Shown: positions 8,842 through 48,954 of the stretch, piece by piece
Layout of the letters: every line of letters starts with the position of its first letter
Numbering within the stretch: the first letter of the stretch is position 1
Origin: Squalus acanthias
Taxonomy: Eukaryota
DNA: 64,000 nucleotides
Assembly (NCBI GenBank): GCA_030390025.1
Contig: CM059432.1
Coordinates: 29,824,001 to 29,888,000, forward strand
Direction of reading: 5' to 3'
Notes under the pieces: generated by a model
The model's database searches: none
Told to the model about the DNA's origin: nothing
What the model saw: only the letters and a program-made list of their open reading frames with translations
Made by a program: the position numbers and the translations under genes

Positions 8842-8904
8842 ATAACAACAGAAAACGCTGGAAAAACTTAGCAGGCCAGGCAGCATCTGTGGAGAGAGAA
8901 ACAG

Positions 8905-9595: not shown

Positions 9596-9619
9596 CTGGA
9601 AGGGTTCCTGCTTTTTTCC

Positions 9620-9656
9620 AGTTCTGACGAAAGGTCTTCGACCTGAAACGTTAACT
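9620..9656 (+). ncRNA. Minimal type I hammerhead ribozyme motif in Penelope pLTR
   Basis: Stem I AGTT/AACT; core CTGACGA(A); stem II AGGTC-TTC-GACCT; GAAA; palindromic stem III ACGT; GUU cleavage triplet. Confidence 0.8.
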
Positions 9657-11790: not shown

Positions 11791-12884
11791 ACTTTAAATT
11801 GTCTGTTTACAGGCCCTGACAGCTGTTAGGAGCATCAGCCATTAGTGATTTTAATTACTGCACTGCCATTGGAGACCAGGGGCTGCTGCCTCTGCTATTA
11901 AACAGCCTTTAAATGGAGCAAATGGGAGCCAGTGCAAACTAACACTTACCCTTCAGCTACTGTAAATGGGCTGGGTTTAATTTATGGGCTAAATATGGAC
12001 TCTGATGTAACGTTAGTCCACAATCAACCAACCTCTGGCCTGGACAAGTGTATTTGTGGTAGTTGCTCTCTGCTATACTGTAGCAGAGGTTACACAAATT
12101 GAGATGAATGGAATTTGGTGTTATTACCATTCTCCCAACATAATGTAAAACCATAACAATCTCTTATTTAAAAAAGTAATCTGCAGGTGCCTGTTTTACT
12201 GTTGAGTTCCGTTTCCAAACCATTTACTATTTTCACAAAAAAAAACAATTGAATATCTAAACGGGAATTAAATGAATGGTCAGGGAAATTCAGCTCTGGA
12301 TAAACGACGACGTTTCTGGGGACAGGAAAAGGTCATTGAACCAGTACGAGAGATCAAAGCCCAACTCCCCTCCCCCGCCTCAAACTGCTCACCATATTCT
12401 TCAATCCTTTCACTCTCCACAAACACATCTAATTATATCCTGAATCCATTTACACTGTCTGCTTCAATGGCATTCCATTATATTCCATATCTATTATTCT
12501 TGTCTGATTTCCCTTCTGGCTCCGAACTCCCCAATTTTTAACTGGTGTGTCCTGGTATTTGAGCCCTTCACCATAGTGAACGATTGCCATGGGAAAGGTA
12601 ATTTGATACTTGGAATCAGCCTTGGTTTTGTTAACAGCAGAGAATTATGGCTGCAAGTAGAACATTTTAATATAAATCTCATTCAAAGGCAAAATGGTCC
12701 CCAATAGTCCTTTTTTTCTACAGTTATAGAACCATAGAAATTTACAGCACAGAAGGAGGCCATTCAGCTCATTGTGTCTGCACTGGTTCTCTGAAAGTGC
12801 TATCCATTTAATCCCTTTTCCCCAAACTCTTATGTTTCTTTTTATCTACTTCCTTTATGGATTCTGCTTGATTCACTGCTTATT

Positions 12885-13165
12885 TTTTTTAATTCATTCT
12901 TGGGATACGGGTGTTGCAAGCAAGGCCAACATTTATTGCCCATTCCTAGTTGCCCTCGAGAAGCTGGTGGTGAACCTTCTTCTTGAATCGCTACAGTCTG
13001 TGTGTTGAAGATACTCTCACAATGCTGTTAGGTAGGGAGTTTCAGGATTTTGACCCAGCGACGATAAAGGAACCGCCGCAATATATCTCCAAGTTGGGAT
13101 AGTGTGTGACATGGAGGGGAACTTGGAGGTGATGGTGTTCCTATGCGCCTGCTGCCCTTGTCCAT
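12885..13165 (-). mobile_element. 3' fragment of the SINE-headed LINE family (see 30535-33032)
   Basis: Matches 30550-30780. Confidence 0.75.
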
Positions 13166-14070: not shown

Positions 14071-14756
14071 GGTTGTGAGAATGTGAATGCATTGCCCTAG
14101 AAGTGCATAGAAGCAGAATCAATTCAAGTGTTTAACAGGGACCTGGTTACTTGGAAGTAAAGTTATTTAAGCTTTAGAGGGAAGAACAGGGAATTGGGAT
14201 TAAAAAGAGGTGGTAACAAAATGCTTTTTTATTTGTTTTTAATTCATTCTCAGAATGTGCGCTTTGCTGGCAAGGTCAGAATTTATTGCACATCATTAGT
14301 TGCCCAAGAGAAGATTGGTGGTGGATCTTCTTGAACCACTGCTGGCAGTTTCGATACGATTGAGTGGCTTGCTACACTGAAAGGTGAGAGAGGTCCATGC
14401 AGTCAGTGTCATCTACAAACACCAGCAGGTCTTGTTCAGTGTTTTGTATCTGGCGTAAATGATTAAAGGGAATGTCACGCAGAGCTGAAGGTAATATTTC
14501 AATGTAAAGTAAGCCGTCCAGAAAGAAAATAAAAGTTCACTTGAATGTTCCAATGGATCAATAGGTAAATATACCACCTAGAGTGGAACTAATCCATACA
14601 GATAAGGAAAATCCCAGGTTCAATCCCTGGCTGTGTTGATTGAGCTGATCTCAGACAGGATGATCTTGGGTTGCTGCAGTTGGCTTAATCAACCCATGGT
14701 TTTTAAGGGGTAAAAGAAAAATTATCCAGAGTTCCTGCTCTTGATCACTACACAGT

Positions 14757-15761: not shown

Positions 15762-18700
15762 TGTAACTGGTTTTTGCGGTAGCCAATTTCCTATGGCCCC
15801 TGCCGCAATCGCCAATTATTGTAGGTGGTTTGCTTTGGTGGTTCGAATCACCCCCCCTACTTAGTTCTATACGACAGGAATTACGGTGAACAAGATTGGA
15901 AACACAGACAAGCTTTTCAGACTCAACTGTATGGTGTTTAATAAAGTTAATACACACACCCGCCTCCAGTACGTAAAATGCCTGGTGGCGTAAAACAAAC
16001 AGTACAACAATACAACTTGGCCCGTCGAACAGGCCCCTGTCTCGTATTAAGACGCCTAAAATCACACTGTGTTGCAATACAGAGTATAACATGGACTTGT
16101 CCCACAAACCCCGGAACATACACTATATAATACACACACAACCTCCCCACTAAACCCCTCTGGCTTGGTTGGGACACACAACACCCCCTCACACAGTACC
16201 GGTGGTCTTAATGATGCGTGGGCTTGGACAATGCTCACCCTGATTGTTCGTTTTCTTGCTCGCTGCTCCCGTGTAGAGCATGTCTCCTGATTCCGTATCG
16301 CCGATGCAGTATCCAAGTCCCAGTTTCGAGGTTCGTTCCTACAGTCGAAGAGCAAGGCAAGGCTCTTGTCGCTCGTGGTGGTTTAGAGAGAGAGAGCGAA
16401 AGGCCAAAGCTGCCTTCTCTATATCCTCTCAGGTCTGTGTAGTTGCAGTGATGTCTTTTTAATTACCCTTCTTTGTCTGGTTTCCCGCCTTTCGGGACTA
16501 TCCCATCTAGGTGCTGGTGATAATGGCAGATGATGGGCCGCACTTCTCACCTGATCCTGGGTTAAGTGGCTTCCCATTAATTTACAATGGCTCTCTTTTG
16601 TCCGGTTCCTGCCTTTCAGGGCTATCTCATCTAGGTGCTTGTGACCGTATGAGTCATCTCCCCGGACATAAGAACATAAGAAATAGGAGCCCCTCGAGCC
16701 TGCTCCGCCATTCAATAAGATCATGGCTGATCTGATCCTAACCGGCAATCTACTATCACAGAACCATCTCCTGCATCTAACAGAATTGCACACACGAAAT
16801 AGGAGCAGAATCAGGCTACACGGTCCCTGGGCCCGCTCCACTACCCACAGGGCCATGACCGATCCGAACCTAGACTCATGTCCAAATTCCTGCCCGCTCC
16901 CCGTAACCCTTAATGCCCTTTACTTCTAGGAAACTGTCTATTTCTGTTTTAAATTTATTTAATGATGTAGCTTCTACAGCTTTTTGTGGCAGCATATTCC
17001 ATGGACCTACCACCCTCTGAGTGAAGTAGTTCCTCCTCATCTCAGTTTTGAAAGAGCAGCCCCTTATTCTAAGACTATGTCCCCTAGTTCTAGTCTCACC
17101 CGTCATCGGGAACATCCTCCCCGCATCCACCCGATCCAACCCCTTCACAATCTTATATGTTTCAATAAGATCGCCTCTCATTCTTCTGAACTCCAATGAG
17201 TAGAGTCCCAATCTACCCAACCTCTCCTCATATGACCACCCCCTCATCCCCGGGATTAACCGAGTGAACCTTTTTTGCACTGCCTCGAGAGCAAGGATGT
17301 CTTTCCTTAAGTAAGGACACCAAAACTGTATGCAGTATTCCAGGTGCGGTCTCACCAATACCTTGTACAACTGAAGCAATACCTCCCTATTTTTATATTC
17401 TATCCCCCAACATTCCATTTGCCTTCTTAATCACTTGCTGCACCTGCATACTAACCTTTTGAGTTTCGTGCACCAGGACCCCCAGATCCCTTTGCACTTC
17501 AGTACTCTCCAGTTTCTTGCCATTAAGATAATAAATTGCTCTAGGATTTTTCCTGCCAAAGTGCATCACCTCACACTTTCCAGTGTTGTATTCCATCTGC
17601 CAAATCTCTGCCCACTTACTTAGCCTGTCTATGTCCCCTTGCAGGTTTTTTATGTCCTCCTCACTCACTACTTTCCCTCCCATCTTTGTATCATCTGCAA
17701 ATTTTGATATGTTACACTTGGTCCCTTCTTCCAAATCGTTAATATAGATTGTAAAGAGTTGGGGACCCAGCACTGACCCCTGTGGAACACCACTAGTTAC
17801 TGATTGCCAGTCTGAGAATGAACCATTTATCCCAACTCTTTGCTTTCTGTTAGATAGCCAATCCTCTATCCATGCCAGAATATTACCCCCAATCCCGTGA
17901 TTTTTTACCTTAAGCAATAATCTTTTGTGTGGCACCTTGTCAAATGCCTTTTGGAAGTCTAAATACACTACGTCCACTGGTTCCCCTTTATCCACTCTAT
18001 ATGTTACTTCCTCAAAGAACTCCAGCAAATTTGTCAAACATGACTTCCCCTTCGTAAAACCATGCTGACTTTGTCCTATTAAATTATGATTATCCAAATG
18101 TCCTGTTACTGTTTCCTTAATAATGGACTCCAAAATTTTACCTACCACAGATGTTAGGCTAACCGGTCTATAGTTACCAGCCTTCTGTCTACTGCCCTTT
18201 TTAAATAAGGGTGTTACATTAGCAGTTTTCCAGTCTGCCGGGACCTTAGCGGAATCCAGGGAGTTTTGAAAAATTATTACCAATGCATCTACAATCCCTA
18301 CCGCCACTTCCTTCAAGACTCTAGGATGTAAGCCATCAGGTCCAGGTGATTTATCCGCCTTGAGTCCCATTATTTTACCGAGTACCACTTCCTTAGTGAT
18401 TTTGATCGTGTTTAGCTCCTCTCCCCCTATAGCCCCCTGTTTGTCCAGTGTTGGGATATTCTTAGTGTCCTCTACTGTAAAGACTGATACAAAATATTCA
18501 TTCAGTGTTTTTGCCATCTCCATATTTCCCAACATTAATTTCCCGGTCTCATCCTCTAAGGGACCAACATTTACTTTAGCCACCCTTTTTCTTTTTATAT
18601 AACTATAAGACCCATTGTCTTCCCAGAGAATTCTGTCTGCCCAGACATTCTCCCATAATTAGTTTGTAGGTCTGGCTGGAATCTCCTGTTCATGAACACC

Positions 18701-18790: not shown

Positions 18791-20475
18791 GCGGTACCAT
18801 TAAGTCTCACAATTCACTGCAACTCACTAAGCCACATACAAAGGTACACACAAATCTGTCCAAGACCGGAAAATGTTGAAAATAAAGATTTTTATGTTTG
18901 ACAACACATTAACATAAACTTTACATAAACATTGGATAAAGCACCCAAGTGGCTACCTTTGTGTGTTGTTAGTTGGTATGATTGCACTAGGATGAGGGTG
19001 AGGGGTGGCTAGTGAGATGGGGATGTGATAATGTAGATAGAGAGGGATGGGTGGAGGTGCAAGGTATGTTGGTGTGAGTAAGGATGTGCAGGAGTAGGGT
19101 CGGGAAGGCAGAGTGATGGGGATGTGATGAGAGGCACAGCAGGGTGAAGTTGGGTGTGGCTTTGTACTAATGTTTCCTGATCTAATGAGATCATTGAAAC
19201 GTTTGAGGCACTGCACCCAGGTCCTCCTGACCACATCCCTGCTTGTGCCCTCCTCTGCAATGTGTAACCAGGCTGTTTTGGTCTCTTCCGCCCATCGGAA
19301 AGTAAGAAGGCCTCCCTGCGTGCTGTGACTCCCTCCATAAGCAAATGGAGGGAGTCATCGGAGAACCTGGGTGCAGTGATTGTCAGTGTTTGCAGCACTC
19401 CAATGCTGTAGTGCACTGACAGCACTATGTTAGATAAAACTTCAAATGCAATGTGGCCATGGTCACTTTAAGGATCCTGGATGAAAACGCGTCATGAATG
19501 ACGTCACCAGACCCGCTCCATCTCATTGGGAAGTTAACGCGCTGGGCGGGCTTAATAAGCTCCTGAAGGTAAGTTAATTTTCAACAGTGGGATGGAGCCA
19601 GCAGTGGGGTCACGACTTGCAACGGACACCAGCTACACCGGATCCGCCCAGGTAGGCAAAATTCCGGCCTAAGCCATACAGACCTGAAAGTCGGTTCAGT
19701 TCTTCGCTAAAAAGAGATGTTCCCACTTATCCAAAAAAACATCCTCGTGGACACCTGCCATCTTTGATCAACTAGTGGGAAAGATCTGCTGGGATCGCAA
19801 GTATGGCGGGATCCATCTCCGAGTGGTTACCATGGAGCGAAATGAGGGATTCTCTTTCTTCCTGGTCCTCATGCTCAGATACAACTCAAAAGTGAGTGCA
19901 GCACTTGGGTGAAACCAGTACCTCGGCAAGATTTAGCATTTTTGTAACACAATGGGAGAATACCAAGGACAATAAGCCCAGCGGCAGGGGTCAGCCCAAT
20001 GGATACACTTGCCATTTTTTTTATGGTTTTACAATATTTCAGGGGCCCGCTCTCCTCCCCAGGACAGCATTGTTCTTTAACACAGTTTGAGCTGCAGAAA
20101 TTTGCAGATTGGCTGATATTATTGACCAAAGCATGTGTTGGCAAAGTTAATGAAGATTTGCTTCATACTCAGCACTTAATGTCATTGCTTTGTGCAGAAC
20201 TGGAAGGGAAAACTGCTTAACGCTGACTGAGGATCTTTCAGCACCAGGAAAGATTATATGAACGAGGTTGCTAGGAAAAGGGGAGGAGCGAGAAGAGGCT
20301 GATATTCAGCACCAAGGAGGGGAGGGGAAGGGGAGGGTAAAGCAGCCATACCTAGCTCAAATATCATAAACAGAGTTATTTATAAACCAACAAGGGTACA
20401 GTTGCCAAAGCAGAGACCACATTGAAAATAAATGTCAAGACCCACTGGGAATAGCAAGGATCTGTAAGGATCTTA

Positions 20476-23047: not shown

Positions 23048-25190
23048 AAAGACTTGCACTTATATAGCACCTTTCACGACCTCAGGACGTCCCAAAGTGC
23101 TTTACAGCCAATTAAGTACTTTTGAATTGTAGGCCGGAAATTCCGGGGGTTCAGCGGGCGTAATCGATGGCGGGTCAGGAACCCGTTATCAACCCGCACC
23201 ACGCGCCTTTCCCAGTGTCGGGTCTGTCAGTGCGATCGGCAGCGGTGGGGGACCTAATTAAAATGATAAGCATCTAGTTGCCAGATGCTTAACAGCCTTT
23301 TTTCACTTACCTTTTGTCTTTAACTTCATGACCACGGGATCCCAACTGTGCGCAGACCACGGCTGTCAAGCTGAGGCGTGAGTTCAGTGGCCATTGCCCC
23401 AGCTGATTACTTGACAGCTTCAAATGCTCCCACCTGACTGATCTTCACTTTCCTCAGGCAGAAGCTTTTTCTCACTCCATTTCTAGCACACATTCTGCAG
23501 GCTTTCCACTTTCCAACCACTCTCATCTCATTGGAAGAACTCTCTCACCATTGACAGAATGCTTCTGTCATCTCTACATCACCTGCCATCTATTCCATCA
23601 ACATGGGTGCACTTTATACTCTCTCACCTTGGTCCAGAGAATCACACCACAATCATCCCCAACACCAGCAGCACCAGGCACACCAGCAGCACCAACAACA
23701 ACACCAACCTTCTCCGCAATCAACTGATGCTGCACAGGACAGAAGGCATCAGCACATTGTTGCCCGGGAGGCCAGGGATGGCCTCACCATGGCCAGATTT
23801 ACTTCACTTGATGCTGTACACCCTGGCTGCCACATGATGTGCCAGGTTGGCACCACCCCACGCCAACACCATAAAGCATCCCATTCCTTTCACACTCACC
23901 ACCATTGCGGGGGGGGGTACCATTATGTCTCACCATTCACTGCAACTCACTAAGCCACTTTCAAAGGTGCACACAAATCTGTCCAAGAATGCAAAATGTT
24001 GAAAATAAAGGTTTCAATGTTTGACAGCACATTAACAGAAACTTTACATGAACATTGGATAAAACACCCAAGTGCCTACCCTTGTGTGTTGTTAGTTGGT
24101 ATGATTGCACTAGGATGAGGGTGAGTGTGAGGGGTGGCTAGTGAGATGGGGCTGTGATAACATAATAGAGAGGGATAGGTGGAGGTGCAAGGTACGTTGG
24201 TGTGAGTAAGGATGTGCAGGAGTAGGGTAGGGAAGGCAAAATGATGGGGATGTGATGAGAGACACAGCAGGATAAGGTTGAGTGTGGCTTTGTACTAATG
24301 TTTCGTGATCTACTGAGATCATTGAAACGTTTGCGGCACTGCACCCAGGTCCTCCTGACCACATCCCTGCTTGTGCCCTCCTGTGCAATATGCAACCAGA
24401 CTGCGTTGGTCCCCTGGGGAGGTCTCTTCTGCCCATTGGAAGGGAAGAGAACCTCCCTTCATGCTGTGACTCCCTCCATAAGCATATGGAGGGAATCATG
24501 GGAGAGCCTGGGTGCAGCCCTGTGCCTTTGTTCAGTCATTGTCAGTGTTTGCAGCACCTCAATGCTGTGGAACACTGACAGCACAACTGTCAAAATAAAT
24601 TTGGCCATGACCCCTTTAAGGAAACTGGTTGATGACGCGTCATGAATGACGTCACCAGACCCGCTTCCTCTAATTGGCCGGGAAACGTGCTGGGCCGGCT
24701 TAACAAGCCCTAATAACGGAAATTCATTTCACAGAGCTGGACGAAGCCAGCAGCGGGGTCGGGATCCACCACCAACGTCGCCCGCCACGGACCCGCCGAG
24801 GTGAGTAAAATCCCGGCCCCAATCACTGTTGTAATGTAGGAAACATGGCAGCCAATTTGCGCACAGCAAGCTCCCACAAACCACAATGAAATATTTGATC
24901 GTAAAATCTGTTTTAGGTGTTGGTTGAAAAATGTTGGGCAGGACATTGGAAGAACTCTCCTGCTGTTCTTCGAACACCAACACCAACCCTGGGATCTTTT
25001 ACGTCTACCTGAGAGGCCAGACTCTTACTTTAGCGTCTCATCCGAAAGAGGGCACTTCCGACAGTGCAGCACTCCCTCAGTACGGCACTGGAGTGCCAGC
25101 TGAGATTATGTGCTCTAGTCACTGGAGTGGTACTTGAACCCATTACCTTCTAGCTCAGAGGTGAGAGTGCTACTGCTGAGCCAACCTTGT
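23048..25190 (-). mobile_element. Deu-domain SINE split by a Harbinger insertion (23048-23131 and 24820-25190)
   Basis: Tail at 23048-23131; body and tRNA head at 24820-25190. Confidence 0.8.
23132..24818. mobile_element. PIF/Harbinger non-autonomous element, sister of 15296-19669
   Basis: TIRs GGCCGGAAATT / AAATCCCGGCC; mini-ORF from 23603; Myb/SANT exon 24539-24300 on minus (MTEQRHRAAPRLSHDSL...RRTWVQCRKRFNDL, one stop); TSD degenerate. Confidence 0.88.
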
Positions 25191-27140
25191 GAAGCAAACA
25201 TTGGGTGAGTTCACTGTGGCTGATAATTTCCGTTGCTGGCGAGTTTGTACGTTTCAAATTACTTTTTTGTTTCTTTATCCCTTTTATAATGGTGATATGG
25301 AAATTTGTGTTAGGCCGTGTGCGACATCTGAATTGTAACAAACAGGGAAAGCGCACATATATGTAAAATCTTTGCATTACTAGTGGATCTCCAATGGAAT
25401 TGCTCATGGTAACTCAGGATACTCCATTTTATAACAAATGGGTTTTATATCATGTATCGCACAATGTATTATCAGTATCACTAATTTACCGTGACTGAAT
25501 AAATCAAATTGCATGTTATTACATTATTCTGGGATTTTTACCAAATTTTGGTGATCAAATTCTGTCCATTTTCCTGTGGCAATCATAATGAACAGCCTTG
25601 ATTATTATCAATACTCTATAGCCTATAACCTATCTAATTTTTATCCTGTAGTTTTTTTTAAAGCCTAGGTACTTAGCAAGATGTACCAGGTTGGAGGTCC
25701 ATAGCCAATGTTTAACAGCACATAGGAGTGACGTTCCTGGGGTTTTGCAGACAGAGAAAGTCCTGAGCATTGTTAACACTAAAACACAAAACCATACAAT
25801 CATAGCCATTCGGCTCATTATGCCTGTGCCAGATCTTTCCAAAGCTAATCCTACTACCCACTCTCTTCCCATAGCCCTGTATCATCCTCTGCTTCAAATA
25901 GTTTTCCCTTAAGATTCAGTGGGCCCACAATTTCCTCGGAGGTTCCACAAAACTCCTGGCAGAAGTCCAGCAGAACACACGGGAAACCTGATTATGCCAG
26001 TTCCCTGCCTTTTCCAGGATTTTCTGGTTAGTGTTATGAGGGGCAGAACCTTCGCCTTCTCCTTACAAGGCTAATGATGTTAGGAACATAGGAATTACTA
26101 GAAGAAAAAAGACCAAGATCCATCTAGTTTGCCTTCTACCATCCTGGTAGGCACATGATACAATGATAATGGAGTTGTTGACTAATCACAGTAATCAATC
26201 TCTATCAATTAGTCTAAAACAGGGGCAGACATGAAGCAGGGTAAACCCCAATGGTGGAGAGCTTTGTGAAACAAAGTCACCAGTTCCTCCCAAGCGTGCG
26301 ACACTTACCACATGTCATGTCTCAAAATACTCATAACTGTATCCCGAAATGTTATTTTCTGAAAGAAATCTATCTAATTTGCCATTGAGTGGGCACTCCT
26401 TGTGCAAGGGGTTCCCAATTCCCTAGGTCATATGGGATCAAGCGTAGCATGGAGAGTGTACGTCAAGTAAGATGAGACATACCAGCCTCCACGAGGCCAC
26501 AGGTGGGCCCCACCAGGTGAGGGATCCAGAGGAGAAAAGCAGCCTAGATCCCTAGAAGAAAACCAAAATTTACTTTCCAAAATCTGGAGGGGGAGATGGT
26601 TGGGGTCTTGTGAGGGGTGCTGGGCCCGATAGCAGGCAGGTAGGGTATTTTTAAGCTGCATAGGGCAGTGGGTGACAAAAATGCGCTCAGTGGCACGGAC
26701 GACCACCGGTCCCATGCAAATTAGGTAACCTCCCACTGACCCTGTAAACTCCAGCAGATCGGCACTGGTATAACGATTGAGATCACAGCCCTAAGATTTT
26801 CAGGGTCACAGTCTGTGCCCCAACTATTCCCTAAGGTCAAAGACTCCCTGGTCTAACAACTTACATGCATATAGCACCTTTAATATAGTAAAGTGGGATG
26901 GGAGGCGGCTCCTGTGGAACTTTAACACCGGCATAGACCTGTTTGGCCAAATTGTGATTGTGATATACTTGAACAAATTAGTATTGAGAGGGAGGAGGTA
27001 CTAGCGGTTTTAGCGGGCTTAAAAGTGGATAAATCCCCAGGCCCTGACAGGATGTATCCCAGGCTGCTGTGTGAGGCAAGGGAGGAGATTGCAGGGGCTC
27101 TGACACGAATTTTCAGAACCTCTCTGGCCACAGGGGAGGT

Positions 27141-27272
27141 CATGATGCGGAGATGCCGGTGTTGGACTGGGGTGGACAAAATTGAGAGGTCGCACAACAC
27201 CAGGTTATAGTCCAACAGTTTTATTTGAAATCACAAGCTTTCGGAGCTATCGATTGCCCCTTCCTCAGGTGA
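27141..27272 (-). mobile_element. Short Penelope-pLTR/retrozyme-like insert carrying a hammerhead
   Basis: 132 bp foreign to the CR1 (between ...GGGGAGGT and AGACTGG...); minus-strand AATAAA just downstream of the ribozyme motif. Confidence 0.7.
27231..27272 (-). ncRNA. Minimal type I hammerhead ribozyme motif
   Basis: Minus strand TCAC-CTGAGGA-A-GGGGC-AATCGATA-GCTCC-GAAAGCTT-GTGA: stem I TCAC/GTGA, stem II with one G-U pair, palindromic AGCT stem III, CUU triplet. Confidence 0.78.
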
Positions 27273-29554
27273 AGACTGGAAAACAGCTAACGTAGTACCA
27301 TTGTTCAAGAAGGGTAGTAGGGATAAACCAGGGAATTACAGGCCAGTGAGCCTAACATCAGTAGTAGGGAAATTATTGGAAAAAATTCTGAGGGACAGAA
27401 TTAGTCTCCACTTGGAGAGGCAGGGATTAATCAGGGATAGTCAGCATGGCTTTGTCAGGGGGAGATCATGTCTGACCAATTTGATTGAATTTTGAGAGGG
27501 GATGACTAGGTGTGTGGATGAGGGTAGTGCAGTTGATGTAGTCTACATGGACTTCAGTAAGGCTTTTGACAAAGTCCCACATGGGAGACTGGTCAAGAAG
27601 GTAAGAGTCCATGGGATCCAGGGCAATTTGACACATTGGATCCAAAATTGGCTTAGTGGCAGGAGGCAGAGGGTGATGGTCAAAGGTTGTTTTTGTGACT
27701 GGAAGCCTGTGTCCAGTGGTGTACCGCAGGGATCGGTGCTGGGTCCTTTGCTGTTTGTAGTGTACATTTGTAGTGTACATTAATGATTTAGATATGAATG
27801 TAGGAGGTATGATCAGTAAGTTCGCAGATGACACGAAAATTGGTGGAGTGGTAAATAGCGAGGAGGGAAGCCTCAGGCTACAGGACGATATAGACAGGAT
27901 GGTTAGATGGGCAGAACAGTGGCAAATGGAATTTAACCCTGAAAAGTGTGAGGTGATGCATTTTGGGAGACTAACAAGGCAAGGGAATACACAATGAATG
28001 GTAGGACCCTAGGAAGGACAGAGGATCAGGGGGACCTTGGTGTGCATGTACATAGATGCCTGAAGGCAGCAGTACAGGTAGATAAGGTGGTTAAAAAGGC
28101 ATATGAGATACTTGCCTTCATTAGCCGAGGCATAGAATATAAGAGCAGGGAGGTTATGATGGAGCTGTACAAAACGCTAGTTAGGCCACAGCTGGAATAC
28201 TGTGTGCAGTTCTGGTCGCCACACTATAGGAATGATGTGTTTGCATTGGAGAGGGTGCAGAGGTGATTCACCAGGATGTTACCTGGGCTGGAGCGCTTCA
28301 GCTATGGAGAGAGACTGGACAGGCTGGGGTTGTTTTCCTTAGAGCCGAGAAGGGACCTGATTGAGGTGTACAAAATTATGAGGGGCATAGATACGGTAGA
28401 TAGAAAGGAACTTTTCCCCTTAGTAGAGGGGTCAATAACCAGGGGGCATAGTTTCAAGGTAAGGGGCAGGAGGTTTAGAGGGGATTTGAGGAAAAACTTT
28501 TTCACCCAGAGGGTGGTTGGAATCTGGAACTCACTGCCTGAAAGGGTGGTAGAGGCAGGAACCCTCAACATTCAAGAAGCATTTAGATGGGCACTTAAAA
28601 CGCCATAGCATACAAGGCTACGGACCAAGTGCTGGAAAATGGGATTAGAATAGACAGGGCTTGATGGCCGGCGCGGACACGATGGGCCGAAGGGCCTCTT
28701 TCTGTGCTGTATAACTCTATGACTATGACCATGGCCTGTATCTGTGCTGTAAAATTCTATGTAATAGCTGACTTAATCCTTAAATTTTCTCAAGGCACTT
28801 CACCAATTGCTCAGTGTTGACTGAGAAATACAGACCCAGAAGGTCCCAGGTTCTATCACAATGAATTACTGATCTCAGTTGGGCTGACAGCAGAGGCCTG
28901 AGTGCTGACAGCTGGGCTTGTGAGGGGTAAATCCCACACCTGGTCATGATTCAAAAGGGAATTGGATATATACTTGAAAAATAAAAATTTGCAGAGCTGT
29001 TAGGAAAGAGCAGGGGAGTGGGACTAACTGGATAGCTCTTTCAAAGAACTGGCACGGGCACGATGGGCCAAATGGCCTCCTTCTGTGCTGTAAGATTCTA
29101 TGATTCAGCAAGTCGTACTAGGTATGGACGTCAGGTGAGGGCAAGATCGGGCTCGAGTGTGTCGCCACAGTCGAATAGCCCGCCGTCACATCTGACTAAT
29201 GGCCACTTGGGTGAGATATCAATCGATGAATGGCACTTGTGGAACGTTAACCCAGCAATGAGTCAATACCTTCAGGACAGAAAGTTGACAAACATAAATC
29301 AAGGTTGCAAGAGCTGCTGGTGGTGAGATCTTGGCTGGGAATTTCCTTGGACCTGCGCCTGCTCTGCTGTCGTAAGTTTACCAGAAGTGTGATGGAAACC
29401 CCAATGTGCATAAACGGTGTTTCTACTTCACTTCTGGTGGAACGGGAGCAACATCAAGGAAATTACAGACGTTTATTTTCCCTTAAGTTCCCCTCTCTCG
29501 GTCTCCCCATATTGTGCACAGTAATTTCAAAGCACCTAACCTGGGAAACATGTG

Positions 29555-29930
29555 TTCAGTAGTGTAGTGGTTATTTTATTGGACTAGTACTCCAGAGGCC
29601 TGGACTAATTCAGAGAACGTGAGTTCAAATTCCACCATGGCAGTTTGAGAATTTGAATTCAGTTTTTTTTTTTAAACTGGAAATTAAAAAATGTTGGTTT
29701 CAGTAAAAGTGATCATGACTGTCAGATTGTCCCAAACGCCCAACTGGTTCACTAATGTCCTTTAGGGAGGGAAATCTGCTGTCTCTACTCGATCCAGCCT
29801 ATATGCGACTCCAGTCCCACACCAACATCACTGACACTTAACTGCCCTCAGTCGCCAGGGCAACGAGGGATGGGTAATAAATGCCAGCTTTGCCAGTGAC
29901 GCCCACATGGCGAGAATGAATAACAAAAAA
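29555..29930 (+). mobile_element. tRNA-derived SINE sharing both head and tail with the LINE at 30535-33032
   Basis: A box TAGTGTAGTGG, B box GAGTTCAAATTCC; body GGTTCACTAATGTCCTTTAGGGA; tail GGGCAACGAGGGATGGGTAATAAATGCC...GACGCCCACAT. Confidence 0.85.
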
Positions 29931-30534
29931 AACCTGACTTATACCCTACTGATCTGACTCTGTAGTTCAGCATTCTATTTGCCTTGTTGACTGTCACTCT
30001 ATTAATCAGGCATATTAAGCAACCATAATACCTAATAGATCTCCTTCAACTTCATCCTCAGTTACTGCAATACTGTTCATGGAGTACATAGATGCTCCAT
30101 TTTTCCTTCCTACGCGCAGTACTTTACTCTTTTTTTATTACATTTAATGTCCCACCTATTATTTCATCTAACTCATTGTCAGTCTTTGGCTGCCTCTTTA
30201 GATTCAACTATACTCCCTAATTTGGTGTTGTATGCAAACTACTCTCCATATTATAATAATGATACTGTTCTGCATATTATATTAATAATACTGCTTGGTA
30301 TGGTACAATGACTATAGCACCATATAGATTACAATATCTACAGATTTTATTTATTATGCCTGTTTTGATTGTGTAGAGTCATTTTTATGCTTGCTGATTG
30401 GTTAATCACATCTCAAACTTTCGGACTGAAAACAAGAAGTCATATTTTCCCAAAGAAAGTTTATCTTGTTTCTCATATCACTTCTCACCTTTCTCACTAG
30501 GTAGAAAAGGTACAGTCACATAACACTAACAAAT

Positions 30535-33032
30535 TTTATTTTTATTTTTTATATTCATTCATGGGATGTGGGCGTCGCTGGCAAGGCCAGCATTTATTGC
30601 CCATCCCTAGTTGCCCTTGAGAAGGTGGTGGTGAGCCGCCTTCTTGAACTGCTGCAGTCCAGGTGGTGAAGGTACTCCCACAGTGCTGTTAGGGAGGGAG
30701 TTCCAGGATTTTGACCCAGCAACAATGAAGGAACGGCGATATACTTCCAAGTCAGGATGGTGTGTGACTTGGAGGAAGATGGTTGGGCCTACGACACTGC
30801 CCTGAGGAACTCCTGCAGCGATGTCCTGGGGCTGAGACGATTGACCTCCAACCACCACAACCATCTTCCTTTGTGCTAGGTATGACTCCAGCCAGTGGAG
30901 AGTTCCCCCCTCCCCGATTCCCATTGACTTCAATTTTATTAGGGCTCCTTGATGCCACACTCGGTCAAATGCTGCCTTGATGTCAAGGGCAGTCACTCTC
31001 ACCTTACCTCTGGAATTCAGCTCCTTTGTCCATGTTTGGACCAAGGCTGTAATGAGGTCTGGAGCCGAGTGGTCCTGGTGGAACCCAAACTGGGCATCAG
31101 TGAGCAGCTTATTGGTGCATAAGTGCTGCTTGATAGCACTGTCGATGACAGTGTAGACAGAGTAGACTGACGGGGCGGTAATTGGCTGGATTGGATTTGT
31201 CCTGCTTTTTATGGACTGGACATACCTGGGCAGTTTTCCACATTGTCGAATAGATGCCAGTGTTGTAGCTGTACTGGAACGGCTTGGCTAGAGGCGCGGC
31301 TAGTTCTGAAGCACAAATTTTCAGGGCCCATAACTTTTGCTGTATCCAGTGCGCTCAGCCATTTTTTGATATCACGTGGAGTGAATCGAATTGGCTGAAG
31401 ACTGGCTTCTGTGATGGTGGGGACCTCAGGAGGAGGCCGATATGGATCATCCACTCGGCACTTCTCGCTGAAGATGGTTGCAAACGCTTCAGCCTTGTCT
31501 TTTGCACTCATGTGTTGGACTCCACCATCATTGAGGATGGGGATATTCATGGAGCCTCCTCCACCCATTAGTTGTTTAATGGTCCACCACCATTCACGAC
31601 TGGATGTGGCAGGACTGCAGAGTATTGATCTGATCGTGGGATGGCTTAGCCCTGTCTATAGAATGCTGCTTCCGCTTTTTGGCATGCATGTAGTCCTGTG
31701 TTGCAGCTTCCCCAGGTTGGCACCTCATTTTTAGGTTCGCCTGGTGCTGCTCCTGGCATGCTCTTCTACAATCCTTATTGAACCAGGGTTGGTCCCCTGG
31801 ATTGATGGTAATGGTAGAGTGAGGGATATGCCGGGCCATGAAGTTACATTGTGGTGGAATACAATTCTGCTGCTGCTGATGGCCCACAGCGCTTCATGGA
31901 TGCCCAGTTTTGAGCTGTTAGATCTGTTCTGAATCTGTCCCATTTAGCATGGTGGTAGTGCCACACATCACGATGGAGGGTGTCCTCAGTGTGAAGACGG
32001 GACTTCGTCTTCACAATGACTTTTTGGTGGTCACTGCTACCAATGCTGTCATGGACAGATGCATCTGCGACAGGTAGATTGGTGAGGACGCGGTCAAGTA
32101 GGTTTTTCCCTCGTGTTGGTTCTCTCACCACCTGTCGCAGGCCCAGACTGGCAGCTATATCCTTCAGGACTTGGCCAGCTCGGTCAGTAGTGGTGCTACC
32201 GAGCCACTCTTGGTGATGGACATTAAAGTCCCCCCACCCAGAGTACATTCTGTGCCCTTGCTACTCTCAGTGTTTCTTCCAAGTGGTGTTCAATATGGAG
32301 AAGTATTGATTCATCAGGTGAGGGAGGGCGGTAGGTGGTAATCAGCAGGTTTCCTTGCCCATGCTTGAGATTTCATGGGGTCCGGAGTCAATGTTGAGAA
32401 CTCCCAGGGCCACTCCTTCCTGACTGGATAACACTGTGCCGCCACCCCTGGTGGGTCTGTCCGGTGGGACAGGACATACCCAGGGAAAGTGATGGAGGAG
32501 TCTGGGACATTGGCTAAAAGGTCTGATTCTGTGAGTATGACTATGTCTGTGGGACAGCTCTCCCAATTTTGGCACAAGTCCCCAGATGTTGGTGAGGAGG
32601 ACTTTGCAGGGTTGACTGGGCTGGGTGTGCCGTTGTCGTGTCCGTAGCCGGTGCCGAGGTCAATCCGGTTTTATTCTTATTATTGTTTCTTGTAGCGGTT
32701 TGTTACAACTGAATGGCTTGCTAGGCCATTTCAGAAGGCAGTTCAGAGTTAACCACATTGCCATGGGTCTGGAGTCACATACAGGCCAGACCAGGTAAGG
32801 ACGGCAGATTTCCTTCCCTAAAAGGACATTAGTGAACCAGTTGGGTTTTTACGACAATTCGGTAGTTTCATGGTCACCATTACTGATAGTAGCTTTTTAT
32901 TCCAGATTTATTTAATTAACTGAATTTAAATACCCCAGCTGCTGTGGTGGGATTTGAACTCATGCCTCCGGATCATTAGTCCAGGCCGCTGGATTACTAG
33001 TCCTGTAACATTACCACTATGCTATCGTTCCC
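30535..33032 (-). mobile_element. CR1-group LINE (APE+RT, decayed and internally deleted) with a tRNA-derived SINE head at its 5' end
   Basis: Head 33032-32700 (A box 33024-33014, B box 32961-32950); ORF2 fragments KVLLTNIWGLVPKL (~32605), GDFNVHH, SDH, LDIKAAFDRVWH, GVPQGS; tail ...CCCACATCCCATGAATGAAT + A-rich. Confidence 0.88.
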
Positions 33033-33639
33033 TTTCAAATAAAACATTTTGTGGGACACAGCCACCATGACAGTTCCCTAATCCCAGCTCAACCTCCATT
33101 TATTTCTCCCTTATTCCTTGGCCATCCTGCTGTCTCAGCCTCACTCCAAGGCATCATTCTATGCCTCCTGCTCTGTTACAGTTTCCACAACTGAGTGACT
33201 TGCCAGGTCTCTCCAGAGGCATTAGGAGTCAACCATGTGGTGTGGACTGGAGTCATGTGTAGGCCAGCCCGGGTAAGGCAGGCAGGTTCTCTTCTTTGAA
33301 GGACATCACATGCCGCCAACTTGAATCTGACCGTATTTCCAATTTTGTCTGCATACCCGGTCTGGCCTACAAATAATGCCAAGTCCACACTGCAATTTGA
33401 AATCCTCTTTTATTCTACTGCTCTTCTTGAAAGCCCTCCCCAAACTCTTCTAAAAGGTGTAGGATATAGTTCTACAGCTGCCCGCCACCCTCTTGGTACT
33501 GCACCCATTCTTCAAATGTAAAACGAGACAGTGTGTGCTATTTAACTATGGGGACCATCACAGACCTTCCACACATTTTAGAGCAGAACAGTCAGCATAT
33601 AACAATCAGGAACAGAAATACTGCTGTCCACTGGCTAAA

Positions 33640-37032: not shown

Positions 37033-37059
37033 GAACAAAACAGTATGCTTTGTTAAAGA

Positions 37060-37390
37060 AAGACTTGCATTTATATAGTGCCTTTCATGACCTCAGGTCG
37101 TCCCAAAGCGCTTTACAGCCAATGATGTACTTTTCAAGTGTAGTCACTATTATAATGTCGGAAACGCAGCAGCCAATTTGTCAATTGGCAAGGTTCCACA
37201 ACCAGCAAAGAGATAATGACCAGATAACCTGTTTTAGTGATGTTGGTTGAGGGATAAATGTTGACCAAGGCACCAGCAGAATTCCCTTACTCTTCTTCGA
37301 AATAGTGCTTTGGGATCTTTTACCTGAGAGGGCAGATGGCGCCTCTGCTTCCTGTCTCATCCGTAAGACGGCACCTCTGACAGTGCACTA
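37060..37390 (-). mobile_element. Deu-domain SINE, partial
   Basis: Tail GACTTGCATTTATATAG and Deu core as in 62078-62535. Confidence 0.8.
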
Positions 37391-41589: not shown

Positions 41590-43840
41590 TTCTAACCTGT
41601 GGCCCCAGGTTGGGAGGTGCTGCCGAAGAAGCCTTGGCGAGTTGCTGCAGTGCATCTTGTAGATGGTACACACTGCAGCCATGGTCCGCCAGTGGTGGAG
41701 TGAATGTTTAAGGTGGTGGATGGGGTGCCAATCAAGCAGCTTGTAAAATGGCCGCCGCACCTCGTGGCAGAACATTCTAGACTTTTCAACAGGCAGACAA
41801 GATGGCGTTCCAGTAAACATTTGTGCAAGATCGATTAAGACTCAGCACATTGAAGATAATACACGAGACATCATGGGTTTACAGTATACACATAAATACT
41901 GAAATCGGTCTCCCAGGTACGAATAAAAGCTATTGTACCAAGTAATCAAGAACCCATCCAAAGACATTAATATGTAGAATCCCAACGACTCTACGATGAG
42001 AGAGCCGTTAGCGGGTAGTTACAGAAAACACTTGGAAGCCCCAAAACCCCTCCAGGGAGAACACCGACCGATTAAACAATGGGAGAAATATTAACAGGTA
42101 CTCAGACATTTACGAGTAGCCCCGAAACCCATTAAAACGAAGATCACCCTATACAAGACATTTGAGCGCCAAACCCTAACAAAAGAAAAGACATTAAGGT
42201 TGGGCGGGAAACGGAAGATTTTACACTATAATTACAAGCTCCAAACCGTCCATCTTTCTCTTGACTCTTATGCTCTTGACTCTTATTCGGTTGACTCTTA
42301 TCCTCGTGGCTGCTCCTGTGCTCTTGACTCGCCGTCTTGTTCCTGCTTGCCTCGTGTCTCTTTTCAAAAGACTGTTGAACTTTACGATCCGCTCGAATCT
42401 ACCTCGTGTTGTGTCGCGAAGACCTGTGTAGAACTGGGCTCTGAAGCCTTGAAGCGGGCGCACCATTCCGATAAGTCGGTAAACGGTGTTGGAACCGAAG
42501 GCCCGAGATGAGATGAGATGAGATGAGATGAGAAGAGAAGAGAAGAAGACCATACTTATCGCCACGGTCAGTAAGCCCCGACCGCGCCTGTAGGTCGAAT
42601 AGACATTTTCCTTGCCAGGAAGACTTCTTTGAGTTCTACAGAACTGACACAGGAAGACTCTTCTTCGAGTTTTATCGAACCGGTGTGAGGGCACAGGAAG
42701 ACTCTTTTTTGAGTAGAGTCGGAACTCCGAGGACAACACAGATCTTCATGACAGCAGACGTTCCAGCCTGCTAGCCGGAGCAGAAACGAGTAAACAAGTG
42801 GGGCCAGGAGACCCCCTGATCGACACGTGGGCGCTGCGGTAAAAAACATCCGATCAGAGTTTTCGGAATTCTCTGAGTTATCACGAGTGGTGAGCATGAG
42901 TCTCGAATCCTACGAATCTAGCTTAGGACAGATATTGATAGGGGAGGGTTTCAAGTATTAAGGATAATTGTAATGTGTGCCCCCATTTACGATGTGTTGT
43001 TTGTTGCTTGTTTCCCCGAAATTAGTTACATAACTGCGTGTAAGATTGTACTGTCATTAATCTGTGCTTATGACATGTATTTCGTAATCTTAAGTATTAT
43101 GCAATAAAGATTTTCTATTTCGTACCATTCAACCGAGTCTACCTGAGTTTCATCTCCATTACTGCTCTCGCATCTAAGTCCAGTGTCTAGAACCGTAAGG
43201 GCGAGTGGGTCGAACCACTCACAGGTGTGTCTAGTGCTCCCAGACTGGCTGGAGACCAGAACAGGCAGCAAGGCCTAAACCCGCACTAGCACCCGGGCTG
43301 CACAGAGCCACACGAATCTCACAGGCTGAGAGACAAAAACCCTTACACCAATCAAGCGGGCTACTTTGTCCTGGATGGTGTCGAGCTTCTTGAGTGTAGT
43401 TGGAGCTGCACTCATCCAGGCAAGTGGAGAGTATTCCATCACACTCCTTACTTGTGCCTTGTAGATGGTGGAAAGGCTTTGGGGAGTCAGGAGGTGAGAC
43501 ACTCACCGCAGAATACCTAGCCTCTGACCTGCTCTTGTTGCCACAGTATTTATGTGGCTGGTCCAGTTAAGTTTCTGGTCAATGGTGACCCCCAGGATGT
43601 TGATAGTGGGGGATTCGGCGATGGTAATGCCATTGAATGTCAAGGGGAGGTGGTCAGACTCTCGCTTGTTGGAGAGTCATTGCCTGGCACTTCTGTGGTG
43701 CGAATGTTACCTGCCACTTATCAGCCCAAGCCTGAACATCGTCCAGGTCTTGTCGCATGCGGGCATGGACTGCTTCATTATTTGAGGAGTTGTGAATGAC
43801 GCTGAACACTGTGCAATCATCAGAGAACATTCCCATTTCT
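41590..43840 (-). mobile_element. RT C-terminal fragment of the 30535-33032 LINE family, split by a solo LTR
   Basis: ORFs 43654-43872 (FSDDC..WADKWQVTF) and 43275-43502 (YKAQVRSVMEY); continues at 41590-41741. Confidence 0.8.
41742..43347 (+). mobile_element. Long solo LTR-like element (1606 bp)
   Basis: TGTAA...TTACA termini; TATA-like near 42227; AATAAA 43103-43108; internal CTCTTGACTC, (GAGAT)n and CACAGGAAGACTCTT repeats; no coding capacity recognised. Confidence 0.75.
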
Positions 43841-44139
43841 GACCAGAGGAACACACAGATCTTTCCCAGCAATGAAGTGTTAGCTTAGATTATGTGCTCA
43901 TGTCACCGGAGGGGAGTTTAAATCCACAACCTTGTGACTCAGAGGTGAGAATGTTACCAACTAAGCCAAGTTGATATCACCTGATTTATATCACATTCTC
44001 TTCCAATCTGCTTTATGGGCCTTGAACCTTCACCCAGTTCTCAGTATTGATAATTATGGGTCCTCCTATTGGAGAAAAAAAACACAGATCAGATCCTAAA
44101 CAGCCTAAACCAACCACGGAAAACAAACTTCATCTGCCT

Positions 44140-44400
44140 TCTCAGATGAATGTAAAAGATCCCTTGGCACTATTCAAAGAGTAGGCAAGTTTTCCTTGTG
44201 TCTTGGCCAAAATTTATTCCTCAACAAACACCACTCAAACAGATTATTTGGTCATTTATCTCACGGCTGTTTGTGGGATCTTGCTGTGCATACATTGGGT
44301 GCCGCATTTACCTACAACAGTGACTACACTTAAAAAGTACTTCATTGGAGCATTTTGGGATGTCCTGAGAACATGAGAGGCTCTATATAAATTAATGTTT
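44140..44400 (+). mobile_element. Deu-domain SINE 3' part
   Basis: GTAAAAGATCCC...GTGACTACACTT...CTCTATATAAAT. Confidence 0.75.
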
Positions 44401-45044
44401 TTTTCTTTATAAAATCAACCTCTCTAGAATGACTAGTTAGCAAACTCACCTCGTTGGTTATCACGACTTCTACCTCACAGTTTATTAAATTACCCAAACC
44501 CCTCATTTAGATTCAGGCCAGTAACTCAGCCAAAAGCTTATACTTCATGCAAACCTTCAATTTGATTCCAGCCTATAACTCATGCCCGTGCATCCAGTTT
44601 TCTGACGGTTTTTGAAACTCTGATTGGATTACTGCCTTGTAATCAGCTCCCAAGTATCCAGTAGCCTCGATAGGTTCGAGTCATCATCACAGTTTTGGAA
44701 GGAGCTGGAATGTGATTCTCCGGAGCCACACAAACAGAGAAAGATTATCAGCTCTGCCCCAGACTTGCACACACGTCAATGCACATTGCTTTTCATTAAC
44801 AGCTGCATATATAGCTGGGACCAAGACATTAAGGGATTAACATTAGGGACACACTCCAACAGCACTGTCACTCAAGTTGTTGATATTTTTAGGTCTTGCA
44901 ACAGATTGCTCAACCAGGAAAGGGCTCTCATACAATTTCCCTTCCACCTTCTGGTCCCAACCAACCTGTGGATTAGAACAGAAACAAGAAATCTACTTGG
45001 AGCCCTTTCCAGCTAAAAGGCTCAGTGGGTAAGTAAAGACATAG

Positions 45045-46975
45045 TACTGGAGAAATTAATGGGACTATGTGGCGACAAATCTTCTGGACTTGACGACCTG
45101 CATCCTAGGGTTTTAAAAGAGGTCGCTGCAGAGATAGTGGATGCACTGGTATTAATCTTCCAGAATTCCCTAGATTCTAGTACAGTCTCCAAGGATTAGA
45201 AGGTAGCAAACATAACCCCGCTATTTAAGAAAGGAGGAAGAGAAAAAACAGGGAACTATAGGCCAGTTAGCCTGACATCAGTAGTAGGCAAAATGCTAGA
45301 ATCTATTATTAGGGACGTGGTAACAGGGCACTTAGAAAATCATATTATTAGGCAGAGCCAACATGGATTTATGAAAGGGAAATATTGTTTGACAAATCTG
45401 TTGGAGTTTTTTTGAAGATGTACAGGAAACTTTTGTTTATCCGGCACCCAAATATCCGGAATTCTCGCTTAACCGGCAAAAATCATCCTCCGAAAACTCC
45501 TCTCAAATAACCGGCAATGTTGCAGAGTCGCAGTCGAGTCTCCGCGAACGCCGAGTACTCCGAAAACTCCTCTCAAATAACCGGCAATGTTGCCGATCCC
45601 GAGTCCGAGAACGCCGATTTAGTCAGTAGGGTTAGTTTTCAAAAGTGCCACTACTCGGCCTCCTGGCGCTGTCGGAAGCCCGAAACACTGCAGTAGCAGG
45701 AGTTGATTCTCCCGCGCTGCCTGGAGTCTCTTTGTTAAAAATAGCCTCGGTAGATATAACTCTCCGTTATCCGGTACTTTCGATAAACCGGCACCACGCC
45801 GGTCCCGTCGGTGCCGGTTAATAAAGAGTTTCCTGTAGTAAGTAGGATTGATAAGGTGGTACCAGTGGATGTAGTGTATTTGAATTTTCAAAAAGCATTT
45901 GATAAAAAGTTATTACACAAAATTAGGACTCATGGGATTGGGGATTGGTTAATGGACAGAAAACAGAGAGTATGAATAAATGGGTCTTTTTCGGATTGGC
46001 AGGCTGTAACTAGCGGGGTACCGCAAGGATCAGTGCTTGGGCCTCAGCTATTTACAATCTGTATTAATGACTTAGATGAAGGGACTGATACAAAGTTAGG
46101 TGGGAAAGTAAGCTGTGAGGAGGACGCACAGAGGCTGCAGAGAGATATAGACAGGTTGACTGAGTGGGCAAGAACATGGCAAATGGATTACAATGTGGGG
46201 AAGTGTGAAGTTATCCACTTCGGTAGGAAAAAAAAAGCAGAATATTTTTTGAATGGTGAGACTGGGAAATGTTTGCATTCAGAGGGACATGGGTATCCTT
46301 GTACATTAATCACAGAAAGTTAACATGCAGGTACAGCAAGCAATTACTAAAGCAAATGGTATGTTAGCTTTTGTTACAAAGGGATTAGAGTATAAGAGTA
46401 AAGAAGTCTTACTACAATTATACAAGGCATTGGTGAGGCCACACCTGAAGTACTGTGTACAGTTCTGGTCTCCTTACCTAAGGAAAGACATACTTGCCTT
46501 AGAGGGAGTGCAACAAAGGTTTACTAGACTGGTTCCTGGGATGAGGGATTGTCCTATGAGTAGACTAGGCCTATATTCCCTAGAGTTTAGAAGAATGAGA
46601 GGTGATCTAATTGAAACATATAAAATTCTTAAGGAGTGTGACAGGGTTAATGCTGGGAAAATGTTTCCCCTGGCTGGGGAATCTAGAACACGGGGCCACA
46701 GTCTCAGAATAAGGGGTCAGTCATTTAGGACTGAAATGAGGAGAAATTTCTTCACTCAAAGGGTTGTGAATCTTTGGAATTCTCTACCCCAGAGAGCTGC
46801 GGATGCTCAGTCATTGAGTATATTCAAGACAGAGATCGATACATTTTTGGAAACTAAGGGATATGGGGATAGTGCGGGAAGGTGGAGTTGAGGTAGAAGA
46901 TCAGCCATGATCTTATTGAATGGCAGAGCAGGCTCAAAGGGCCAAATGGCCTACTCCAGCTCCTGTTTCTCATGT
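45045..46975 (+). mobile_element. CR1 LINE, 5'-truncated, interrupted by a MITE
   Basis: RT region plus C-terminal ORF 46325-46891; CR1 tail. Confidence 0.92.
45423..45835. mobile_element. Tc1/mariner (pogo/Tigger-type) MITE
   Basis: TA TSD at 45421-45422 and 45836-45837; 25-bp imperfect TIRs CAGGAAACTTTTGTTTATCCGGCAC / GTGCCGGTTAATAAAGAGTTTCCTG. Confidence 0.9.
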
Positions 46976-48105: not shown

Positions 48106-48954
48106 ATACCTCGATAAGATCACCTTAAACCCCTTCTTTCAAAGCTGAAAAGCCCAAGCTTCTTTCCTGGGTTTCTGACATTCGGAATCAAACTTGTGGC
48201 TCTTCTCTGCACGGATCCCAGCATGTAAATGTCTTTGTGTCCCATGGCCAAAACTGGACATAGTACTCAAGGTGTGGTTGGCCAGAGTACTGTACAAGTA
48301 CTCATTCTCTACACTTCATTTCTCCTTTAACTTAACATACTTTTTTTTTTGCTTAATTGGGATCCGATTACATCAGCAAGTACTCACAAAATCCACAACA
48401 AAACATTATAATCTTACAATTAGAATTAAGCTGCTTAGAAGTGAATCTAGGAGGAAAAAAAAACCCTAACAGAAAGGATTGAGAAAATGTTGAATTTACT
48501 GCCCCAAAGGCCATAGATGCAAAATGAATTGATTTGTTTAAAGAGGTACTTACTTCGGAAGCAAGAATAATATTGAATATGGAGAAAGGACCAAGAATTG
48601 GGATTTAAAAAATAAAGAGCTATCACGGCTAACAAAATGTCAGAGCAGGCTTGATGGGCCAAATGGTCTACTCCTGTGTACCAATGTACTTTGGCTAAAC
48701 AGAAAGGACTTTTATTTATATAGCACCTTTCACGACTTCAAGATGTCCTAGTGCTTTACAGCCAATGAATTAATTTTGCTGTCTAGTCACTGTTGCAACG
48801 TTGGGAAACTTTTACCATCACTGTTGTAATGTAGTTGCAGTTACTCAGCTCAACACTGTGGAGGGAGTTCATACAGATGCAGATGTACAGAGAGTTGCTT
48901 ACAGCCAGCTATAAAGTGATACTGTCCACTGCCAACCTTGAAAAATATCAGCTG

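Follow-up and report, generated by a model that had tools for sequence, protein, structure and literature searches.

We examined a 64,000-nt stretch of the genome of Squalus acanthias, the spiny dogfish (assembly GCA_030390025.1, contig CM059432.1, positions 29,824,001 to 29,888,000 of the forward strand; hereafter the window), which carries a decayed long interspersed element (LINE) on its minus strand, running from a 5' start at 33032 to an A-rich tail near 30545, and a short interspersed element (SINE) on its plus strand nearby (Table 1). The initial annotation had described the LINE as headed by A and B boxes and a SINE body of about 330 bp, as entering an apurinic/apyrimidinic endonuclease (APE) domain some 100 bp later, and as having neither a first open reading frame (ORF1) nor a SINE tail at the junction, and each of these statements was borne out. 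A motif scan of the LINE copy placed the A-box match at 33024 and the B-box match at 32959 of the minus strand. Head and body extend to ~32704, a linker of ~95 nt follows, and the endonuclease begins at 32608; neither an A-tail nor the SINE tail was found between body and endonuclease. The 424 nt from the start of the LINE to the APE hold no long ORF, and the copy thus has no ORF1. Two of the four LINE frames tested matched Pfam domains, Exo_endo_phos_2 (PF14529, E = 3.9e-9) and RVT_1 of the reverse transcriptase (RT; PF00078, E = 2.8e-17), and the remaining two gave no match.

The supplement of a 2026 study (PMC13343379) supplies ~1,000 consensuses of the CR1 group, which we compared over their first 400 nt. 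Among them are seven elasmobranch Zenon consensuses from five species, namely white shark, catshark, whale shark, spiny dogfish (three) and Atlantic stingray (SquAca_Zenon-1/2/3 and the CarCar, ScyCan, RhiTyp and HypSab Zenon-1). By eye, the window LINE starts at the same base as the SquAca_Zenon-1 consensus and differs from it at ~24 of the first 340 positions, and on this ~93% identity of its 5' 340 nt it is identified as a copy of Zenon, a LINE of the CR1 group. According to the same study, Zenons lack ORF1 and end in a poly(A) tail, and the elasmobranch ones, of ~3.3 kb, are absent from repeat repositories; the four family tail copies that we compared all have A-rich ends. The lack of ORF1 is a published trait of Zenon and not a consequence of the head. 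The same tRNA-like head, followed by the same body and linker, stands at the start of all seven elasmobranch consensuses, none being headless, and five of the seven are 3,244-3,314 nt long. Both boxes are kept, the B box in canonical form, in six of the seven, with some variation in spacing and linker (by eye). None of the three non-elasmobranch Zenons in the set (two from hagfish, one from coelacanth) begins with the head, and six exact B-box 11-mers, searched in the first 400 nt of the ~1,000 consensuses, gave five matches, all in elasmobranch Zenons. Neither the family nor its want of ORF1 is therefore new, and the sequence of the head has been published: in the main text of the study the word tRNA does not occur, SINE occurs once, in the title of a reference, and in the parts consulted we found no discussion of the head, the short forms or the poverty in T-runs. 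A shark tRNA-headed coding LINE was not found described in the literature searched, a search that lay outside the Dfam and Repbase entries.

We aligned four public runs (X1, X5, X17 and X23) to positions 30350-33170 at 80% likeness. The summed contig depths, which are not copy numbers, were 15-27 in the outermost bins of the flanks in X1 and X5, and reached 0.6-1.0 million (X1) and 1.2-2.2 million (X5) over the head, 246,035 and 513,108 in the linker bin, and 246,000-380,000 and 701,000-1,180,000 across the three bins of the APE at 32250-32534. In three runs the depth of the linker is comparable to that of the endonuclease, and it stands four orders of magnitude above the flank. Among the 24 pieces listed, beside which a further 342,840 exist, one spans body and linker (32669-32892) and three span linker and APE. 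A whale shark gene model (P0164) also joins body-encoded and endonuclease peptides. The initial annotation had named, as grounds for refutation, a unique junction or full-length members with an ordinary 5' untranslated region (UTR) and ORF1. Neither was found, as the same junction is present in all seven elasmobranch consensuses, the linker is about as deep as the APE, and the published full-length members have no ORF1 or ordinary 5' UTR. Judged from these sequences, full-length members in five elasmobranch species have the order head-body-linker-ORF2-tail as their standard form. The window element, a broken copy of an abundant family, represents a real, family-wide structural variant of a known LINE family.

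Zenon also has several short SINE forms that consist of its 5' and 3' ends joined at a few fixed breakpoints, as several distinct head-to-tail joints were present in contigs of three runs. These joints link 32704 to 30617 (6 and 13 contigs), 32704 to 30642 (6, 4 and 1 contigs in the three runs) and 32705 to 30646 (2 and 11 contigs); a further joint leads from the head end into the tail at 30645, and another connects 32822 to 30617. The plus-strand SINE of the window aligns with the LINE head and body at 75.8% over 260 columns and with the LINE tail at 82.9% over 76 columns, and the local alignment scores 271 against 38 for the best shuffle. The earlier statement that this SINE equals the head plus the LINE tail is therefore right in its two ends, with a shared tail of ~76 nt and not 60. 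A 6-bp repeat occurs on either side of the SINE, at 29538 and at 29931, and thereby delimits it to 29544-29930 (387 bp). Its A box was recognised by pattern and a B-box-like stretch by alignment, and its structure is that of head and body, probably with an internal loss of 23 nt, fused to the tail at the breakpoint of the family. By sequence comparison it is an older, dead element placed beside the LINE by chance, since its divergence far exceeds that of the LINE copy, it lies on the opposite strand and its body contains an 11-T run. Nor is it derived from the window LINE copy, as judged from its 76% identity to the head against ~93% (by eye) of the LINE to the consensus. Of the proposal that a SINE-headed LINE gave rise to a deletion-derived SINE, the headed LINE with head-plus-tail derivatives survives, and the origin of the neighbouring SINE from this copy does not.

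The window LINE copy is itself dead, with several frameshifts in ORF2 and an internal deletion of ~750 nt (~250 codons) at 30775. Loose contig ends lie on either side of this position in 318 of 422 contigs of X1 and 463 of 542 of X5, and these contigs continue into sequence absent from the window copy. No target-site duplication longer than 5 bp was found around the LINE copy. The 3' tail folds as a stem-loop (z = -2.43; 3 of 200 shuffles were equally good) that, by established LINE biology, is likely the recognition signal of the RT, and the body and linker of the LINE fold no better than shuffles (z 0.23). The heads of the decayed window copies do not fold above shuffles (z = +1.40), ARAGORN reported no tRNA gene in them, and the Rfam tRNA model reached 17.9 bits against a 29-bit cut-off, in the SINE copy only.

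A polymerase III transcript must avoid T-runs, and the sense strand of the LINE is poor in them, which fits reading by polymerase III. Over 32764-30610 the observed/expected ratio of TT is 0.78, runs of three or more T (T3+) number 7 against 14.5 expected (ratio 0.48), and there is one run of four (T4; 0.46 per kb) against 3.0 expected from base content, with no run of five (T5). For comparison we used 60 related invertebrate ORFs of at least 500 codons, out of 80 loci, none of which reaches the values of the LINE for TT, T3+ or T4+ per kb (medians 1.05, 1.13 and 7.6). The 11 other LINE pieces in the window all have TT ratios of 1.00-1.18, and a second piece of the Zenon family (43349-43845, assigned by protein match) has a ratio of 0.80 and is free of T4 over its 497 nt. 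At 32823, where the window copy has a T4, the consensuses have three T, and by eye no T4 occurs in the first 400 nt of the seven elasmobranch consensuses. This T-run poverty fits polymerase III read-through, and it could also be codon bias.

We favour, at a probability of about 60%, the reading that this Zenon LINE of sharks and rays, 3.3 kb long and with a single ORF, has a tRNA-derived internal promoter at its 5' end and is read by polymerase III. Transcription factor IIIC (TFIIIC) would bind the A and B boxes of the head, and polymerase III would start at the first base of the element and read the entire T-run-poor sense strand. The ORF2 protein (ORF2p), with its APE and RT, would then bind the 3' stem-loop and copy the RNA by target-primed reverse transcription, through which each full copy would regenerate the promoter. 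The short forms may be internal-deletion derivatives, or both of their ends may be common by descent, and they would be mobilised by the same ORF2p. Published work in which polymerase III RNAs retrotranspose without ORF1p (PMC2666806) fits this reading. The weakest step is the making of ORF2p without an ordinary capped-AUG start, which would call for initiation at a codon other than AUG, for reinitiation, or for frameshifting from the conserved but out-of-frame AUG of the linker. At somewhat less than even odds, the whole would amount to an autonomous coding retrotransposon that makes a 3.3-kb polymerase III RNA from a captured tRNA promoter and is translated without a cap or an in-frame AUG, in effect an autonomous SINE older than the shark-ray split, whose internal deletions directly yield new SINE families.

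More distant relatives bear on when the head was gained. Head homology and the A- and B-box pair were absent upstream of ORF2 in all 80 metagenome relatives of the invertebrate comparison (22-45% identity), so that the gain of the head falls within the elasmobranch lineage or earlier. An ORF1-sized upstream frame is present in many of these 80. In the 60 of them scanned with ARAGORN no upstream tRNA was found; a single antisense match, a tRNA-Ile at the ORF2 start inside one relative (L010, 1965-2039), is probably due to chance. Exact DNA patterns of the element had no match in metagenome, viral or prokaryote genome contigs, and an atlas search returned only generic RT clusters. A protein search with the endonuclease gave only two matches, proteins of Heterodontus and Heptranchias, and two further protein searches gave one and none; relatives show 38-50% identity over the RT. 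The closest full-length relatives (P0011, P0031, P0072, P0021 and P0044) are proteins of 935-983 aa on contigs of 3.3-4.1 kb, which leave little room for an ORF1. Pieces of the LINE ORF2 also occur in a Heterodontus zinc-finger protein (P0001) and a Heptranchias proteasome chaperone isoform (P0115), where they are probably mis-called or exonised exons.

Several observations weigh against polymerase III reading. The T4 count of the LINE is not below that of dinucleotide shuffles (1 against 1.3-1.4 expected), and one T4 against the 3.0 expected from base content is too few to serve as a test alone. A third-position C bias explains part of the T poverty (NTT:NTC 24:55, NAT:NAC 37:55). Low T-run content also occurs elsewhere: three of the 60 headless relatives are likewise without T5, one has 0.66 T4 per kb, and two of the 11 control LINE pieces from the window contain 0-1 T4. 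The B box of the Atlantic stingray consensus is one base short. Lepidopteran Zenons have neither ORF1 nor a polymerase III promoter (PMC6740152), so that loss of ORF1 needs no head. Intact ORF2 was reported in 5 of 5,093 insertions in six table rows that exclude SquAca_Zenon-1 (PMC13343379). The origin of run X17 from RNA is only a guess, and its sequences are kept as contigs; the raw-read run X23 is uninformative, with only 114 reads placed and none on the endonuclease.

To these is added the start of ORF2, for which no in-frame AUG was found ahead of the endonuclease in the window copy or, by eye, in the consensuses. Because of this, a non-AUG start, reinitiation or a frameshift is needed under any model. 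The first in-frame Met of the window copy, at 31897, lies past the endonuclease, whereas the ORFs of the invertebrate relatives begin with a Met 10-30 residues ahead of that domain and in some cases also have a comparable basic segment. The linker contains a conserved AUG whose frame differs from that of the APE in every consensus that can be followed other than SquAca_Zenon-2, where this region carries a deletion. Two AUGs of the body, at 32764 and 32758, are in frame with the APE in the window copy but for one stop. We rejected them as the start of ORF2: the continuity of frame is due to a deletion of ~14 nt near 32663 in the linker that, by eye against the published consensuses, is private to the window copy, and linker length varies among the consensuses.

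The best-placed alternative, which we regard as less likely, holds that the head is a captured SINE serving as a polymerase II 5' UTR or promoter, that its boxes are functional in the short SINE forms alone or else act as TFIIIC insulators, and that T poverty is a by-product of codon bias. It would agree with the general use of polymerase II by elements without long terminal repeats (non-LTR elements) and with the size of polymerase III elements, given as below ~1.3 kb (PMC10886601), with a T4 count not depleted beyond dinucleotide content, and with the tRNA-like sequence that RTE-1_DAn is said to hold (PMC5786205); a capped RNA would also ease translation. However, the element starts exactly at the first base of the tRNA-like head and has both boxes in six of seven consensuses, the T-run values fall outside those of all 60 relatives, and the missing in-frame AUG troubles this model too. 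Clearly less probable is a cycle with two polymerases, in which polymerase III makes the template RNA and ORF2p is supplied in trans from rare copies within host polymerase II transcripts, so that the long form would be a giant SINE carrying ORF2. The absence of an in-frame AUG, the several upstream AUGs and the rarity of intact ORF2 copies are in its favour, as is the intronic position of 39% of whale shark Zenon-like elements (10.1101/443036), but not one of the seven elasmobranch consensuses is headless, and ORF2 is recognisable across sharks and rays (65-84% to a Heptranchias protein, P0002), a pattern suggestive of selection acting on ORF2-bearing copies. A one-off template switch, an adjacent insertion or a chimeric consensus extended into a neighbouring SINE, as automatic extension of the published consensuses (PMC13343379) and the abundance of SINE copies might invite, is refuted by a junction common to five species and the window copy and free of SINE tail, by the concordant lengths of five consensuses, by linker depth far above the flank, and by the whale shark gene model.

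Elements with some of these properties have been described in other groups. The short form of the lepidopteran Zenon, the Persaeus SIDE (PMC6740152), likewise combines the 5' and 3' ends of its Zenon, which is 3.3 kb long and has a single ORF, and it arose more than once; in that account it has no tRNA homology or polymerase III promoter, whereas long and short shark forms both carry A and B boxes. Bov-tA, SINE2_Gav and CoeSINE4 (PMC5786205) have a body from the 5' region of a LINE and a tail from its 3' end, but as described they derive from RTE and Vingi, not the CR1 group, and bear a tRNA head on the short form only, while in sharks the coding LINE itself is headed. RTE-1_DAn and elements related to it, LINEs with a tRNA-like sequence according to one sentence of that paper, belong to another clade. 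Among shark SINEs with a tRNA head and a LINE-type tail, SacSINE1 (a Deu-SINE) is described as 463 bp with an L2-type tail (PMC5499810, PMC2746220), and HE1 (a V-SINE) as the partner of HER1 (PMC3747384); on these descriptions both differ from the window SINE, which is 387 bp, has a poly(A) tail of Zenon type and pairs with Zenon. The window SINE is probably not SacSINE1 by this comparison, a candidate identity that was dropped on tail type and length, and a separate SINE of ~463 bp lies at 62077-62540. The 387-bp form fits the size class of non-coding tRNA-derived SINEs (SINE2, 100-700 bp), but the long form, with APE and RT, does not. For the translation that we propose, a parallel is R2, a non-LTR element that also codes for protein and whose uncapped RNA is presumed to be translated without any standard start. 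R2 differs in its co-transcription by polymerase I and release by a ribozyme, and it has no tRNA promoter.

LINEs are usually separated from SINEs as coding elements transcribed by polymerase II, SINEs being short, non-coding and transcribed by polymerase III (PMC5786205, PMC10886601). If our reading is true, this rule would not hold for an element of 3.3 kb that codes for protein, has a conserved tRNA promoter and is poor in T-runs on its sense strand. Long transcription by polymerase III and translation without a cap would then have a natural example, and a LINE would be seen to become a SINE in one step. If polymerase II makes the RNA, the element would still be an undescribed case of a LINE that took a SINE as its 5' end, and would be useful for the annotation of shark repeats.

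Table 1. Zenon-family and other SINE features in the window (positions counted from its first letter)
Feature	Position	Strand	Basis
5' end of element: tRNA-like head, A box (33024), B box (32959)	32945..33032	-	motif scan; published Zenon consensuses by eye
Body common to LINE and SINE; 5' UTR of LINE; several out-of-frame AUGs	32704..32944	-	alignments; SINE-type joints 32704-32705; 7/7 elasmobranch consensuses
Linker: A-rich, then arginine-rich segment in endonuclease frame	32609..32703	-	sequence reading; run depth; consensus by eye
APE endonuclease domain, frameshifted; no in-frame Met until 31897	31850..32608	-	Pfam PF14529; frames and ATG list
Connector and first part of RT, frameshifted	30776..31849	-	Pfam PF00078; 65-84% identity to Heptranchias protein P0002
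Private internal deletion, ~250 codons of RT and C-terminal region	30774..30776	-	loose contig ends; position in P0011
C-terminal end of ORF2 and stop	30607..30774	-	87% to P0115 residues 179-233
3' tail: stem-loop, A-rich end, also in SINE	30530..30617	-	tail alignment; fold z
Short head+body+tail form (SINE), older copy, 11-T run	29544..29930	+	alignments; 6-bp flanking repeat
Diverged fragment: 3' body into linker-like stretch	33141..33306	-	score 104 vs best shuffle 39; 72% over 33187-33306
5'-truncated 3' end of same LINE family	12880..13160	-	82% over 238 columns (12880-13117)
Tail fragment	14214..14374	-	76% over 132 columns (14214-14342)
3' half of ORF2, interrupted by foreign insert ~41740-43346	41590..43845	-	55-67% to whale shark protein P0006
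Copies of second SINE family in window	62077-62540, 3545-3780, 8626-8843, 24823-25184, 37046-37387, 44131-44417, 48701-49157		

The further fragments that the initial annotation had assigned to the family, near 12885, 14240, 33215 and 41590-43840, are all members, the last with the amendment that a foreign insert of 1.6 kb splits it. The tail fragment near 14240 is a candidate second short form with a longer tail, although its 29-nt match to the head end scored 33, below the best shuffle of 40. Short inverted sequences (TGTAA...TTACA) terminate the insert (~41740-43346), and ~10 bp of LINE sequence is duplicated on its two sides; no further copy occurs within the window, and the insert looks like a solo LTR or similar element.

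Other repeats share the window with the Zenon family. The second tRNA-headed SINE family, of ~463 bp with an L2-type tail, is more abundant than the Zenon SINE and unrelated to it, and its size fits SacSINE1. Another LINE of the CR1 group, the control for T-runs, occupies 323-2875, 3782-4625, 7700-8630, 16797-18608, 26965-28578, 45032-46975 and 55431-61283; its pieces show 24-38% identity to Zenon-type proteins, and several stand head to tail or inverted at ~55400-61300. A 118-bp inverted repeat (8839-8956 against 9605-9722) has 98% identity, far above the other repeats in the window, and a pair of 900-bp direct repeats (18793-19669 and 23916-24818) has 81%.

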